Positions 3,447-27,978 of a stretch of DNA of 64,000 bases are shown here, piece after piece (the stretch's first letter is position 1; each line of letters opens with the position of its first letter). The DNA is taken from NCBI GenBank assembly GCA_035084275.1, contig CM068750.1:10478001-10542000 (forward strand), written 5' to 3'. This DNA comes from Hydrolagus colliei. Its lineage: Eukaryota. The position numbers were made by a program, and so were the translations under genes. The notes under the pieces are model-generated. The model made no database searches, was not told the origin of the DNA, and was given only the letters and a program-made list of their open reading frames with translations.

Positions 3447-3556
3447 CTGTGAAAGTATGGTGTAGATGGTAGATGATACTGTACCTGATTGGCTCTGGTG
3501 GTGGTCATGGGGTCAGATGGAGAGGACTTGGTGGTAGTTGGGGAAGATGGCAATGT
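3447..3556 (-). promoter_or_regulatory. YCAY cluster (NOVA binding element) spanning exon 4 and the start of intron 4
   Basis: Six YCAY motifs lie in the 72-nt exon and four more in the first 38 intronic nt (gtacagtaTCATctaCCATctacaCCATacttTCACag). NOVA1 autoregulation of exon 4 through YCAY elements is established in mammals. Confidence 0.85.
3485..3556 (-). CDS. NOVA1: NOVA1 alternative cassette exon 4 (72 nt): TLPSSPTTTKSSPSDPMTTTRANQ
   Basis: Absent from the ORF track; read by hand as tgctttattcccag|ACATTGCCATCT...GCCAATCAG|gtacag. Encodes 24 in-frame codons matching the Ser/Thr/Pro-rich NOVA1 exon 4 peptide. Confidence 0.96.
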
Positions 3557-7407: not shown

Positions 7408-7574
7408 TTGTTTGATGCGGTCCGGGTTCACTGTGGTCTGTGGCTGCAGGATACTGACTGGTTCTGTCTTTGCCATGTTCTGAGGCATTTCTCGGATCTT
7501 CTCTGCGATGAAGCTGTGGACTGCATTCAGAGCTTCCACTGTTCCCTGGATCAGGCATACCCGCTCTGTTGTTC
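7408..7574 (-). CDS. NOVA1: NOVA1 coding exon 3 (167 nt): end of KH1 domain plus linker, (G)[55 protein letters not shown]
   Basis: Translation is nearly identical to vertebrate NOVA1 as I recall it. Acceptor ttttctacag|GA (AG at plus 7575-7576) and donor CAA|gtgagc (GT at plus 7406-7407). Starts in phase 1 and ends in phase 0. The [20 protein letters not shown] linker and the downstream 72-nt exon indicate NOVA1 rather than NOVA2. Confidence 0.97.
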
Positions 7575-20000: not shown

Positions 20001-22714
20001 TTAAAGAGACTGTTTTCAATATAGACGGCAAAAAGATTTGCTCACAAAAGGAAATTTTCATGCATAAGTGGCATACATATGTCGAAATCTCAGTTTGGTT
20101 TAGGTGCAGTAAAGCACGAAGATGGGTTAATATAACTGTCAAGACATCCAGCTGACCAAAAACAAAACAATTGTGAGATGTGTTCTTTCACTTGACACAA
20201 AAACAATCACTTTGTGGCATACTACAGGACAATTGTAATTCTAGAATCTAATCTCAGTGTTTTATTGTCTTCAACTTCATTTGATGTATGGCCTCAGGAA
20301 TTGTCAGTTGTCGGGAACAACTCTGGAGGTACTTGTCACTATTGAATCACCATGAGCTGCAAAACTCTATTTTTTTGTACTCTGACCCAAACTCATGGAG
20401 CTAGATGTTTGCAAAGTTACACATTGGGCATCTTGCCAGTGAAAGTGTCTACCTGTGTTTTAGATATGGAATAGACAGTTCCCAGCACATCCACACAAAT
20501 GCCAACAAATGAGAGGAAGAAATTGATTCCTTATTTGGTTACAATTTACTAAGGGGATGCAACACCACCCCGAGCCACCACCCCGTAACCTTTTTTGAAC
20601 TATAAGAGATTAATAAAATACTTTCAGTTGTGGATTTACCCACTTGTTTTCAGCAAGCCTTCTTAGAAAGAAAACTGATGAGATTGCTGATGAGATTGAA
20701 TCATCTATTAAGTTTGGTGAGAATCTCATAATATTGGTGAAGCATCTGAGTGGAACTCCCTTGTTTGGTTCAGCTGATAAAACCACATTGAAATGCGAAT
20801 CGAAGACAAACAGGATGAATCAACTGATCTCACCTATAGCAGCAATGAAGAACTACAAAAAGTCTCAGTGTCCCCAGGCTAAAATCAACTATGTTTCTTG
20901 CCCTCCAGTCATTGTTGCTGGGAAGTGCATTAGAAACGGTTTTGTTGACACTCCCTGTATACGTTTATATTTAAAGGTTGATTTACATGAGCTGAGTATC
21001 AAAGGATAGCCAATATTCATGGAAAAAAATCCAACCATTTGACTGCAGCTTCAGGAGATGAGAAGAGGGTCAAAAATTAGAAAGGGAATTCTTCAATTAT
21101 TTTTAAACACTGTAATAACCTGTAATTCCAGTAAATGTTTCAAAGATATTATTAAAGTTTTTCTTGGAGCATAAAATATCTGCAGCCTCCCTTAGATATT
21201 GTTCTGGAGATCACCATATGTTGAATTTGTATGAGGGGCAATTTATACCCTTTCTTGTTCTCCATTGGACATTCTTGCAGATCTCAGCATTCAGCATGAA
21301 TTATTAAAATATTTGCCTTGCTGCTGAGTGTAGGAAGCAACAGAGTTGCTGGAAGCAGAACACCAACTGCTTCACTTTATCAACAGATGTTCAAGAAAAA
21401 CAATGTTTGGAACTATTGATATTATCACATACTCATTAGGAAGCTCTGCTTCATCACACATGGATGTGCTTTTCTTCAGGAATCTTAATACTTCGCAGTA
21501 TCCACTTGACAGGAAAGCCATCACCAAGGTGACTGATAGGATACTGAATGAGACATATCCTTTAGTACAGTCCCTACTGCACCTCACAACCTTGTGCAAG
21601 TGATAAAATTATCAAATCGCCTACAAAGGAATGCTTTGTAATTTGAAGGAACTTGCCAAATTTAATGCCAAGAAATTTGCCTGTACACTGGCATCAACCT
21701 TAAATTACAATATAGCCAACATTTGGTTTTGTGCCAGAGATTTAAAATTCACATTCCTGCTTCACAGTCTGATAGGAATTGTCATTTCTCTGTTGAGTTT
21801 CCTTCTTCCAAGGTGCACTTCTGCACTAGAGGGACCTCATTTAAAGGGAAGCAGTACAAGCCCAGGGAAATTGAGGGTGAGAAAATGTGAATGAAATGAG
21901 TGGAAGCACTATGTCTATGCACTGGTCACAGAGTTTCACATGCACATTAAAGCACTGGATTCCTTGGAGCATGTATGCAAGAACATCTTACCAACGTTGG
22001 CAATGTGGTGACCCATTGCAACATCAAAGCGGGATGAGGGTTTCTCACACAGATTACTACATAAATTAATCTAACTAGCCCTTTCAACTACCAGTGAAGA
22101 TTCCACTATGGTGGATACAGTGTATGTATAATTGATCCGTGACTATGTAGATATGGCACAACGCATTTTCAGTAAATCATATATGGGGTAAGATATAATA
22201 ATCTTTGTATTTGATATTATGCTTATCACATTGTTGAGTTGTCTCAAAGTGCTTCACAGAATACATTTTAAAGTGCACAAAATAATGTTTTACACAAGAG
22301 GTCTGGGGGGCCTATTGGAATTGCACACCACTGATCTGATTCCTTATGTGTAAGAGTTACTAAGGAACATGCACAAAAGAATACTGTATCAACGTTAGGA
22401 AGTAACAGCTTTACATTGCCTCTGCCACCCTGCTATATGCACAATAAATGTTTTAAAATATAGTGCAAAATACCAACGTGGAGAATTTTGTTTTTATTCA
22501 AAGCACACATATCATTCTCAATAAACCAGAATGCTGCACTGCCACTAGGGATGAGTGGCAGAGATAAAATTAAAGAATACAATATAATGCAATTTGCAAT
22601 CGAACTGTGACTTTCATATTTGGAGGATGATTTAAAGAGGTTGATGCCTCTGACAAACACCAAATTGGACAAGTTCGGAGTAATGTGCACCAATTCAGAT
22701 GCTTGTAATAATAA

Positions 22715-22975
22715 TAATATTTGTATCTGAAATAGCACCTTACCATGTCATCAAGATATCTCAAAGAGATAATGGAAAGATTTTAATGGAAAGTGCAGTG
22801 ATTGTACTTGCAAGAAAACTTTGTGCACTGTAATATCCCACAAACAGCCCATTTTATCCAGGGGGGATTGTTGGCCAGAACTCCTTTCTCTTTTTCAAAA
22901 TTGGCGTGGGATTTCTAATATCTACCTAAATAGGCAGATGGAGCCTCAGTTTAAAGTGTCATCTGAAAGACAATA
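22715..22975 (-). mobile_element. Degenerate Deu-domain-type SINE remnant
   Basis: Reverse-complement tail plus atcccacaaacagc, ttggccagaactcc and aggcagatggagcctcagtttaaagtgtcatctgaaaga, as in shark DeuSINE (SacSINE1-like) sequence recalled from memory. Confidence 0.55.
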
Positions 22976-24203
22976 TGGTTAATCACACCTGTCCTGTTTT
23001 TTTTACAGTCTCTCGTGGGATCACCTGTGCAGAGGTACCTTGAGGAACCTTCTCGCACGATTGGCATCGCAAATGACTGGCAGCTGCTCGCTTGCTCCCT
23101 GTGGCTGGAGCTACAGTGTTACAGGAATATATTTAAAATAATGCAACCCTGCCTGGGGCAATGTGGATGACAGCTTGCAACACCACAGAGGGACACGGGC
23201 TCCTCTGTACCACTGGGTGCCCTCACCTCAGCTGTGTTGCCCGGGGATGGGGAAGGGGAGTAACATTTCAGCTTGCATCTTTTTGGCCAGCCAGGAGTGA
23301 GTGAAGGCACTTATTTCTCCATGACAAGGTGCATAGTCTGGTGGGGCTAAAAAAAATTGCATTTTTCAGTATCTATTTAATCCTTGATTGCAAGGCAATA
23401 GATCTATGAAAAGATATCCCGTAAAAAACACTCTTTATTCACAAAGCTCCCCTGTGGTGATTTAGCCACGGGGGGGGGGAGGGGGGGGAGGATATAATAG
23501 GGAGTTTTCATTAGATTTTCTGGTGCTACACTCTACATTTCCTTCAACTCACCTCTGTTATTTGTGCGGGGGTGGGAGGGATGAAATAGAAAGACGTTAT
23601 GTGTGTTCTACATGGACCAGGTGGGAGAATCCAACGTGGCTGAGGCTGATGAATATCTCAAGTTCAGAATTTCTCCCAAACATACCCAGGAAACAAAAGC
23701 AACACAAATACACATATACACACATACACATATTTTCATCCATATGCTATACAATAATATATCATCAAGCATTAGACACTACTGCAGCCATTATTTACCC
23801 ACATTATTGGAAATTAATTGTTCTCAGCGACTGCCTCAGAAGTTCTGTGTATCAAATCGATAATTTTGTGTGAAAATTAAAACATTTACAGCAGCAGTAG
23901 CATTGGAAACTGAAAATGGGTTGTGTCTAGACAAAGAAACATTAAATAAATCAAGTTGTGCTTAGTAATAAGGAGCTGTTGAGTAACATGAATGGAGGTA
24001 ATCCACTGAGACTGGGCAAGAGACTTCAACCTATTGTTGGAGAGGAACAGTTCTGTTATTTCATTTCAATAGCCGATAAAATCCAGGCAAAAACACTGAC
24101 CTAATAGAATAATAAAATGATAGCCATTTGTCCCAAATCAAATAAAAAATGTTTTGCATTTGAGCATAGGTACAAAGTGATAGGAACGTATGTGTATGTG
24201 TCA

Positions 24204-24223
24204 ATGATGATGGTGTGAGGTGG
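24204..24223 (-). promoter_or_regulatory. Dense intronic YCAY cluster (5 motifs in 20 nt), putative NOVA binding site
   Basis: Minus strand reads CCACCTCACACCATCATCAT, 48-67 nt downstream of a TGG|GTGAGG donor-like site. Confidence 0.55.
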
Positions 24224-25817
24224 GGGATTCTTCTCTGGAGTGTATGCAATGTGTATCAGGAGAACCTCACCCATGGATTTGGGACCACTGCACTCTTTTA
24301 CGAGCAAATGGGAAACTGAAGTAAAACCGAGAGTGAGCTTTTTTTTCTCCCTTAATCATGGGACAAAAGCCAAATGAATATATCTAGCCAGGATTTTTAA
24401 ATTCTTCACAAATCATTTTTTTTCAGGATCTGCATGACCATTTTTTTCCCCCTGCAGTTCAGTTTAGCAGTTCAGTTTACAAAAAAAATAATTCAGGCAT
24501 ACATAGCACTGCACTCAAGCAAGGTTGTCTAGGGAACCAGTAGTCTAAAAAAGGATGAACGCATCCTATTGGACAGCAATGGTCCATACAGTACATGTGC
24601 AGCATTGTTACACACACAGGACAGAAGAGAACAAGCTGGATGCAGAATGGCTGCCCGCTGAGCAGAATTACATTGATATAACATTCTCCAGCACAATGTG
24701 ACAATTGTTCCATGCCGCATATTTTCCAGTCTGAAAATTCTAACAGGCAAATATAATGCACTCGTTTCAGGATGTGTGGCAGTGTCATTCAAACTGAGTT
24801 CCTAGTTTCACAAAATAACATTTTGTTTTGCTTTAGCCTAAATGCCACTGTGATTTAAAAGATCTTTGCAACCTCTCAATGTAATCTGTTCTACAAAACA
24901 TTTTTGTTTCTTCCGGTCCCGCACCTTGCATTAATGCATCAGTCATTTTACACTTAAGGCCTCAAAGCAATCGCAGTCCACGGATGAAAGACCAATTCCT
25001 TCATAGAACTCCCCCTGTAATATATCAATGAAAACAAATATCCCACACTGTAGATATCCTGTCATGTTGCACTTGCAGTGTCTGCATTTCTGAAGTAACA
25101 TATGCCCGCACAAATCTTAACAAGATTGTCTTTGTGTTAACAGGCAGGTTTGAAGAAATTACTGTAACTAATTCAGGTTACTGTGACCATACGGTGTAGG
25201 TCAATAATTCTTGAAATGGAATGTGATTTCAGTGAACTTCTCTATGCTCCATAATTTGCGAATTTCTGTGACCACCAGAAGTACCCTGATGATTTAAATT
25301 CATCAGTGGATGCCAGAGTGGAAATGGCAATCGTCCACAGCTTGTCCCCTTTTTTTACCTCCAAATTATAGCTATTCTGATATTTAAAGGGCATCCTGAT
25401 TTTGATCAGACTGAAGCTGATCCTTTCAAATGAATTAGCTTTTCTTCTTAAAGACTGCATTTTTAGTCTCATCTTCTTTTTCGGTCACTTATTGAATTTA
25501 ATGCTGTAATCACTCCACCTAGGATACGCTTATCTCCTTGGGATTTCACGCATACGATTAAGTGAAGGTCTATGAGTCTGTTCTTTGCAGTAAACAAAAA
25601 TGGGTATCTCTTCTGCCACTGCAATAACAACTTCTTGCATTTATATAGTGCCTTTCATGAAACAAATTTTCACAAAGCTCTTCAGAGATGGAACAGAAAT
25701 AAACCTCACTATTTGGAGTGAACCAAAGGAAGCTGCTCATTCTCCAATTAGCCAACATTTCTATAAGATATATAGCAACATCACTCTCTTGTCAGAGAAA
25801 TGTGGTCAGGATCACTG

Positions 25818-27978
25818 TAACAACAGCAAAATTACATTTATATAACACCTTTCACATTGGGAGGACAGTCAGTATTTCAGACAGAAGCTGGGATGGAGGG
25901 GGGTGGAGGGAAGGGAGGGAAAGTGGGTGACCAATGGCATGGTCGAAGAGGAGGGACTTGAAGGAGGCTAGGGAAGGGGCAGGGTAGAGGAATTGCAGGA
26001 TGGAATTCCAAAGGTTGGGGGTAGAATGACTGAAGGCTAGCCCACTGATAACAACAACAAATTAACAACAACAAATTACATTTATAGAGCACCTTTCACG
26101 TCGGGAGGACGTCCCAAGGCGCTGCACAGGAGGCGTGTGACCCGAGCTGAGAGGGGAGTGTGTGGGAAGGGGTGAAACAAGAAGAGGAGGTCGAAGAGTT
26201 CGGGGTGGAACAAAAGGCACGGTAGAAGAGGAAAGTCTTCAAACTGGCCTTGAAAGAGGAAAGGGAAGAAACGAAATGGAGGGATTGAGGGATGGCATTC
26301 CATAGGGTGGGAGCGGAGAAACTGAAGGCCCGGCCTCTGATGGTGGGGCGGTTCGGGTGGGGGGCTTGGAGCAGGCCAAGTCCTGTTGAACGGAGGGTCC
26401 GGGTGGGCTTGTAGGGGGAAAGTAGATCGGTTAAATAGGGCGGGGCAAGGCCGTGTAAGGCCTTGTAGGTGAGGACGAGGATCTTGAACTCGATCCTCTG
26501 GAGAATGGGGAGCCAATGGAGATGGGCGAGGGTGGGGGTTATGTGGTCGCGGAGGCGGGTGCGGGATAGTACACGGGCTGCAGAGTTTTGGATGACCTGC
26601 AGCCTGTGAATGGAGGAACTGGGGAGGCCGACGAGGAGAGAGTTTCCGTAGTCCAGCCTCGAGGTGATGTATGCGTGCACGAGTGTTTCGGCAGCGCGGG
26701 GGGTAAGATAGTTAACCTGGCAATATTGCGCAGGTGGAAATAAGCCCCACTGATGGTGGGTCGGGTGAGTCACAGGGAGCTGGCTGGATCCCACTGAGCA
26801 GAGGGAGCAGACAGGTTGGTAGAGGGTTAGGGAGTCACAGCAGTAGGGTGGAGCAAGGCTGTGGAGGGCTTTAAAGATGAGGACCAGGATCTTGAATTGA
26901 ATTCTCTGAATGATGGGAAGCCAATTAAGTCAGGTGAGAATGGGGAGCTGGGGTAGTGGAGATTGGTGCAGTAGAGGACATGGGCTGCAGAGTTCTGGAT
27001 GATCTGCAGCCGATGGAGGGAGAAAATTGGGAAGGCTGACAAGCAGGGCGTTGGCATGGTCGAGCCTGGATGTGATAAAGGTATGAAGAGTTTCAGTGGC
27101 CTGAGGAGTGAGGTAGTGGCGGAGTCGGGCAATGTTGCGGAGGTGAGGTGGAATATGCAACCATGGAGGTTGATGATGCCAGTGCCTGAGGTGCAGAGGC
27201 ATTGCCATGAGCCAATCGGGAGAGCTTTGGTCTTGGTGACGTTCAACTGTAGAAAGCTGGCTCTCATCCAGGACTTGATGTCCGACAGGCAGTCTGTCAG
27301 GACAGTAGTGGTCCTGGAATCGAGGCAGAAGAGTTGGGTGTCATCCAAATACATGTAAGTTGACCCCATGTTTGCTGATGATGTCACCAAGGGGGAGCAT
27401 ATAGATATTAAAAAGGAGAGGGACAACAACAGAGCCCTGGGGGATGCCACACATGACAGTGCAGGGGCTGGAGGAGAAGCCATTAGTGGTGATAAAGTGG
27501 AGATGGTCGAAGCTGTAAGATTCGAACCAGGCAAGGGCAGGTCCAAAAATATTGAGCTGAGAGGAGAGACGGTGTAGGAGGATAGAGTGGTCGACATTGT
27601 CGAAGACGGCAGAGGGGTCGAGGAGGACAAGAAAGCAGAGTGCCTGATCACAGATGTTTAAAATGTTGTTAGAGACTTTGGGCAGCATGGATGCCAGATT
27701 GGAGTGGTTCAAAGAGGGAATGGTCAGACTCAACGACTCATTCCAGGGAGAGGAATGGGAGGTTGGAGATGGGGCAATAACTGGAGAGTAGGGATGGGTC
27801 CAGGGAAGAAATGATAGTGGTGAAGTAGGAGGGAAAGAAGGTGTATGGGGGTGGGTGGGTGGGGAGGTGGGTCATGAGGGAGATGTAATAGACAGGGGGT
27901 TGCAATAGACAGGGTGGACAGGTGGCTGAACAGATCCTCTCGATTATGAATTTGAGGAGGTCCAGCATCTCCTTGCAT
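25818..27978 (-). mobile_element. Older L2 LINE (about 1.45 kb, RT domain to tail), split by a nested younger L2 at 26050-26745
   Basis: RT motifs LLDPSAVFDNVDH, GIPQGS..PLLFNIYM, YLDDTQL and SRLDHANALL are scattered over several frames. The tail is at about 25818-25875. Confidence 0.9.
26050..26745 (-). mobile_element. Young 5'-truncated L2 LINE with open ORF2 C-terminus and 9-bp target-site duplication
   Basis: Uninterrupted frame AAETLVHAYITSRLDYGNSLLVGLP...HWLPILQRIEFKILVLTYKALHGLAPPYL. CpG-rich, with a (CAA)n tail. CCCACTGAT occurs at 26041-26049 and 26746-26754. Confidence 0.92.

Follow-up and report, generated by a model that had tools for sequence, protein, structure and literature searches.

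The stretch of DNA analysed here, referred to as the window, comprises 64,000 nt of the 1.0-Gb genome of Hydrolagus colliei, and its minus strand carries exons 3 and 4 of NOVA1. Exons 1 and 2 lie outside the window, past its end, and the last exon lies before its start. Exon 2, which terminates DFYP|G, is 31 kb beyond the window end, and intron 2 is 87,570 nt long. An earlier note on this DNA had assigned the gene, the intron, and the phase correctly. The last exon is 96 to 98% identical to that of NOVA1 in sharks, bony fishes, and tetrapods, and the gene agrees with shark and ray NOVA1 proteins in its HSF residues (exon 3) and in the TTTRANQ with which exon 4 ends. A whole-genome search with a shark NOVA2-type query matched the four NOVA1 exons only and no second NOVA gene. 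NOVA2 may have been lost from the genome or be absent from the assembly. The relevant features, in window coordinates, are as follows.

3485-3556, minus strand: NOVA1 exon 4 (72 nt), known to be autoregulated, with six YCAY motifs inside and four within 36 nt downstream
7408-7574, minus strand: NOVA1 exon 3 (167 nt), encoding the second half of KH1 and starting at 7574 in phase 1
23227-23346, minus strand: 120-nt segment of intron 2, termed a poison exon in the earlier note
24187-24200, minus strand: short CA-rich tract, under the TRF threshold, at whose edge the alignment with the related species X1 breaks
24204-24223, minus strand: YCAY cluster, five motifs in 20 nt, of which 24220-24210 is the 3′ arm of a predicted helix
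24265-24274, minus strand: donor ATGG|GTGAGG, also the 5′ arm of the predicted helix
24271-24315, minus strand: candidate exon, 45 nt, phase 1, stop-free in the H. colliei window
24316-24332, minus strand: pyrimidine tract and acceptor, AG at 24317-24316
24333-24338, minus strand: gCTCAC, a putative branch point from its sequence, A at 24334 (-19)

The earlier note proposed that the gCTCAC, the tract, the AG, the 45-nt segment, the GTGAGG, and the YCAY motifs together form a cassette exon whose inclusion is promoted by NOVA. All of these are found on the minus strand at the positions it gave, and the segment, stop-free in phase 1, would join the DFYP|G end of exon 2 to the phase-1 start of exon 3. 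Its translation in that phase is (V)SHLLVKECSGPKSM(G). The acceptor tract has 12 pyrimidines in 15, and the real NOVA1 exons 2 to 4 have fewer (8 to 11 of 15). The YCAY motifs start at +48, +53, +58, +61, and +64 relative to the donor (cluster span, +48 to +67). A NOVA-enhanced exon is expected to have at least three such motifs in the downstream intron near the donor, and here there are five in 20 nt. The reasoning from the RNA map is also sound, in that downstream YCAY clusters promote inclusion (PMC3737533, in part). Being in frame and stop-free, the candidate would not introduce in H. colliei the premature stop expected of a poison exon. An origin from a repeat was rejected, because the exon is single copy in a search of the genome and no tandem repeat spans the cluster, and so was a recursive splice site, the segment beginning AG|TT rather than AG|GT. 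With the KH topology (PMC2722981, in part) placed on the 2ANN sequence by eye, the exon 2/3 junction putatively falls after the second strand of KH1 and before the third.

The layout is rare. Intron 2 contains one five-in-20 YCAY cluster on the sense strand, that of the candidate, and one on the antisense strand, against a Markov expectation of 0.03 to 0.13 per intron, and the candidate's cluster is the densest on the sense strand across 224 kb of the locus. A strict splice-site rule, which demands 12 of 15 pyrimidines, a branch motif, and G|GTRAG, leaves the intron with a single in-frame, stop-free pair, namely the candidate (one of two sense pairs; none of the single antisense pair). Control sequence amounted to 624 kb, made up of 400 kb of control strands and the 224-kb antisense strand of the locus. 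There, a strict in-frame exon lay upstream of 0 of 294 three-in-20 clusters, a loose in-frame exon upstream of 1, and a loose exon in any frame upstream of 26; since the strict rule was fitted to the candidate itself, these rates overstate significance and express rarity, not a P value. Looser rules give 7 to 15 in-frame pseudo-exons on the sense strand of intron 2 versus 11 to 16 on the antisense strand, and the 400 kb of control hold one five-in-20 cluster. Two more sense-strand clusters in the intron have five YCAY motifs in 30 nt (21874-21903 and 27848-27877, minus strand).

The earlier note overlooked that the donor and the YCAY cluster are predicted to pair. AUGG|GUGAGG is complementary to CCUCAC-A-CCAU within the cluster, and folding predicts a 10-bp helix in the minimum-energy and centroid structures alike, with a probability of 0.98 to 0.99 at 37°C in all four segments folded and similar values at 15°C. 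The duplex, at -14.1 kcal/mol, is the strongest among the 96 GGTGAG sites of the locus; 254 of 7,028 donor-by-cluster pairs (3.6%) reach its energy, and the overall folding z-scores are unremarkable (+0.60 and -0.78). Predicted unpaired fractions of the five motifs are, in order, 0.55, 0.01, 0.06 to 0.11, 0.52 to 0.62, and 0.70 to 0.98, so that three of the five are at most 55% unpaired and the last UCAU is mostly unpaired. NOVA is described as favouring accessible, conserved YCAY motifs (PMC3737533, in part). Forcing the motifs open in the prediction leaves donor positions +2 to +6 between 0.74 and 0.85 unpaired in an 81-nt segment; over 501 nt this release falls to 0.05 to 0.51, and the G residues at -2, -1, and +1 remain paired. 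Stem-loops hide the 5′ splice sites of MAPT exon 10 and SMN2 exon 7 (PMC7404189, in part), and the candidate donor is likewise predicted to be paired, with less access for U1, but it differs in that its partner would be the YCAY cluster itself, in a helix that is a prediction. This pairing cuts both ways. It would supply a mechanism for a switch, and it means that donor and cluster no longer count as independent features: two of the five YCAY motifs are the reverse complement of the donor, and a single small inverted repeat can explain why they occur together.

We compared the region with X1, one related species, about 90% identical in intron 2 and represented by contigs of a sequencing run tentatively taken to be of RNA. 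The intronic background is 210 substitutions in 2,165 aligned nt (9.7%). At the candidate, an X1 contig aligns at 24084-24185 and 24309-24650, with 256 other letters replacing the intervening 123; between 24186 and 24279, X1 is longer by about 132 letters. The 30 X1 letters adjoining 24309 are clearly homologous to 24280-24308 (22 matches in a hand alignment), and in these 29 exon bases the same alignment has seven substitutions and a 1-nt insertion (P = 0.019 against background; 0.055 with the seven aligned edge bases as matches), the last nine exon bases lying outside the compared letters. The candidate exon is thus no better kept than the intron, whereas a poison exon and its flanks should be more conserved; the comparison covers one relative, one X1 contig, and 30 loose letters, and the change may have occurred in either lineage. 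Translated by hand in phase 1, starting at the corresponding AG, X1 runs into a TGA at the 11th codon whatever follows, and nothing on the acceptor side compensates for the extra base, since the 20 gap letters of the aligned X1 part all lie elsewhere. Neither the length nor the frame expected of a coding cassette is therefore kept, and inclusion in X1 would bring a premature stop if its AG is used. In the window's frame, six of the six changed codons alter the residue, contrary to what purifying selection on the peptide would leave.

The flanks of the exon differ from each other in this comparison. The acceptor stretch (24316-24332) aligns gap-free in X1, with 22 substitutions falling in the 106 nt upstream of it; as 4 of 32 X1 substitutions near alignment ends are unlisted, the acceptor AG is not proven intact. 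The donor and YCAY region has no X1 alignment at 85% or 80% likeness, its X1 letters being unseen, whereas other X1 records of 54 to 62 nt with seven to nine mismatches were placed. We lean towards counting this non-alignment against conservation of the donor and cluster. A second run, X2, is identical to the window over 24188-24700 and may be the window's own source, and so is not an independent comparison. Both runs consist of contigs and hence are uninformative on splicing. Upstream of the candidate, six X1 substitutions are listed for the roughly 150 nt of 24470-24620, where the surrounding sequence has about 10%; this block is possibly a conserved non-coding element. Elsewhere in the intron, 22705-22766 and 22914-22970 are short high-copy repeat fragments on which many X1 and X2 contigs pile up.

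The earlier note suggested that the candidate might lead into the 120-nt segment at 23227-23346. In X1 the acceptor AG of that segment reads GG (position 23348), its tract carries a 10-nt deletion, and the segment itself has at least 13 substitutions. With the AG lost and 10 nt of the tract gone, it is probably not a conserved poison exon, and the proposed link from the candidate is weakened accordingly.

To place the candidate peptide among known isoforms, we sampled NOVA proteins by taking the top 120 of 387, the top 120 of 448, and at most 15 members from each of 10 clusters; of the 284 so obtained, 217 span DFYP to TTERV. The junction is plain in 198 and carries an insert in 19: a shared 10-aa insert in 11 (bowfin, sturgeon, and paddlefish), 19 aa in 2 from paddlefish, 22 aa in 2 from caecilians, 16 aa in a python, 30 aa in a finch, and 2 apparent mis-predictions. 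The comparison with NOVA1 isoforms proposed in the earlier note came out negative, in that none of the 217 carries the candidate peptide. All 29 shark- and ray-type NOVA1 proteins in the sample are plain at the junction, with no chimaera among the names shown. A search with the open frame, itself a weak one, gave 0 hits among three candidates, and 32 queries of the candidate against the annotated inserts and other sequences preceding TTERV returned nothing convincing. The best null fractions were 0.019 (for an apparent mis-prediction), 0.043, and 0.056, the last for the python insert, which has LLVK in common with the candidate.

The annotated inserts of bowfin, sturgeon, paddlefish, caecilian, python, and finch are gene models that share the junction and phase of the candidate; they have no sequence similarity to it or to its intron. 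In-frame inserts at this junction are therefore not new as a class, and that of the candidate is unrecorded in the proteins sampled. Local exonisation may have happened repeatedly, to judge from the unrelated inserts in the models of paddlefish, caecilian, python, and finch. The 10-aa insert in the NOVA1 models of bowfin, sturgeon, and paddlefish (P0023, P0025 to P0027, P0029 to P0031, P0272, P0276, P0279, P0282, and P0283) is kept across two fish groups and appears to stem from an alternative acceptor lying 30 nt ahead of exon 3; as a candidate for a real KH1-loop isoform it is better than the 45-nt exon. A homologue of this insert sought in intron 2 of H. colliei was rejected, since the best scores were 26 of 44 to 45 and came without splice sites.

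Several known systems bear on the candidate. The known feedback of NOVA1 is autoregulation of exon 4 through YCAY motifs on its own pre-mRNA (PMC1877881 and PMC3737533, in part). The candidate resembles exon 4 in lying in the same gene with a YCAY cluster on NOVA1 pre-mRNA, but exon 4 is repressed through exonic YCAY motifs and has a peptide near-invariant from sharks to mammals, whereas activation of the candidate would come from downstream, and the candidate exon itself is not conserved. The NOVA-regulated cryptic nonsense-mediated decay (NMD) exons of Dlg3 and Scn9a are likewise unannotated intronic exons near a NOVA site, and the X1 version of the candidate would be a poison exon as they are. 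CLIP and RT-PCR back both of those exons, and that of Scn9a is described as conserved, whereas the candidate is in frame here and predicted from sequence (PMC3552424, in part). FMR1 exons 11 and 12, like the candidate, are lineage-restricted and lengthen a KH variable loop (that of KH2), and the alternative exon 12 lowers affinity (Kd from 110 to 310 nM); they differ in being expressed, kept across mammals, and without a link to self-binding (PMC2722981, in part). Our literature search, with most subscription papers outside its coverage, returned no account of a cassette exon in intron 2 of NOVA1 or of a donor paired with a YCAY arm.

We favour, with a probability of roughly one half, the reading that the candidate is a young, lineage-restricted, mostly silent cryptic exon, its peptide under no selection and its donor predicted to be masked by pairing with the YCAY cluster. 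The 10-bp helix is predicted to hide the donor from U1, and with the donor so paired the exon would be skipped by default. At high NOVA1 levels the protein may bind the UCAU motifs left free on the 3′ side, using the last UCAU as a toehold, and such binding may loosen the helix enough for low-level inclusion. The product would have 15 additional residues in the KH1 variable loop, probably to little consequence, as KH domains appear to tolerate such a length; FMR1 exons 11 and 12 show that a longer loop is bearable (PMC2722981, in part). If correct, this would be an example of the introns of a splicing factor yielding exon candidates. Against a cryptic exon stand the rarity of the layout (the densest sense cluster of the locus beside the only strict in-frame pseudo-exon, and nothing comparable upstream of the control clusters), the strength of the duplex among the GGTGAG sites, the gap-free X1 acceptor beside a diverged upstream stretch, and the fact that NOVA1 is a known autoregulator, which raises the prior for a regulated exon.

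Alternatively, the exon may be a NOVA-gated cassette that inactivates its message: NOVA would melt the helix, and the included exon would trigger NMD in X1 and weaken KH1 in H. colliei. The target of selection would then be inclusion and not the peptide. The rare layout and specific helix, the freeing of donor positions +2 to +6 in the 81-nt prediction, and the gap-free acceptor in X1 all fit, and there is precedent in the NOVA-included cryptic NMD exon of Scn9a (PMC3552424, in part), in a poison exon reported, without its position, for human NOVA1 (10.1101/2025.06.26.661736, in part), in the rise of NOVA1 by about 40% ‘by unknown means’ in Nova2-null cortex (PMC4930328, in part), and in the reduced KH2 affinity brought by FMR1 exon 12 (PMC2722981, in part). 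We nevertheless consider such a cassette unlikely. It needs a conserved donor/YCAY block, which is unalignable in X1; the predicted release of the donor is partial, shrinks in longer segments, and leaves three G residues paired; the folding z-scores are ordinary; and a poison exon that has come into frame in one lineage suggests weak selection. The inclusion of the human poison exon drops as neurons mature, the opposite of the trend of a NOVA-activated exon (10.1101/2025.06.26.661736, in part). A full second feedback exon, in which a YCAY-locked donor is opened by NOVA and the message is disabled through NMD in X1 or a longer KH1 loop here, would be an RNA switch, and we hold this to be a little less probable again; given the frame-breaking insertion and the stop in the relative, the candidate is in any case likely not a conserved feedback switch. 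Such a switch would matter most where, as here, one NOVA gene is found in the genome. It would offer a structural route for the downstream enhancer effect of NOVA, the freeing of a paired donor, and would form a dose-limiting loop bearing on the NOVA1 rise in Nova2-null cortex (PMC4930328, in part).

A pure pseudo-exon that is never spliced, its splice-like ends falling by chance beside a CA/CAT-rich tract and a small inverted repeat, is as doubtful as the inactivating cassette. It would account for the equal yield of in-frame pseudo-exons on the antisense strand under looser rules, for the five-in-20 clusters found antisense and in the control, for a donor predicted almost wholly paired, and for the lack of conservation in X1; it fits less well with the absence of the joint layout from controls and with the low-level inserts annotated at the same junction in other vertebrates. 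The version in the earlier note, in which NOVA activates a functional isoform with 15 more residues in the KH1 loop, perhaps linked on to the 120-nt exon, fares considerably worse and is now improbable. The segment is in frame and stop-free at a junction tolerant of inserts, and bowfin, sturgeon, and paddlefish models have an insert there. Against this, conservation, which the earlier note had itself set as a way of refuting its proposal, is unfavourable: X1 has the 1-nt insertion with its frameshift, the in-frame TGA, residue-changing codon differences only, and an unalignable donor/YCAY region; the peptide is found neither in the 217 junction-spanning proteins nor by the weak open-frame search; and the AG of the 120-nt exon is lost in X1. 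As a shared feature the isoform is largely refuted. Finally, splicing might use the acceptor but not the masked donor, which would yield a terminal exon whose frame runs for 70 codons to a TAG (24103-24101) and truncates NOVA1 within KH1. The frame is open for 55 codons past the donor (24101-24270, minus strand), and an AATAAA lies at 23439-23434 (minus strand), about 660 nt beyond the open frame. AATAAA is common in AT-rich introns, and the open-frame search, weak as it was, gave no protein hit; we regard a terminal exon as very improbable.

Apart from the exon 2/3 junction, many annotated NOVA1 isoforms begin at the exon 3 methionine (P0230, P0214, P0236, P0244, P0248, P0274, and P0280, the first of them found on 317 contigs). 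This is a hint that a non-coding, poison, or alternative first exon lying upstream, perhaps within intron 2, may be widespread.
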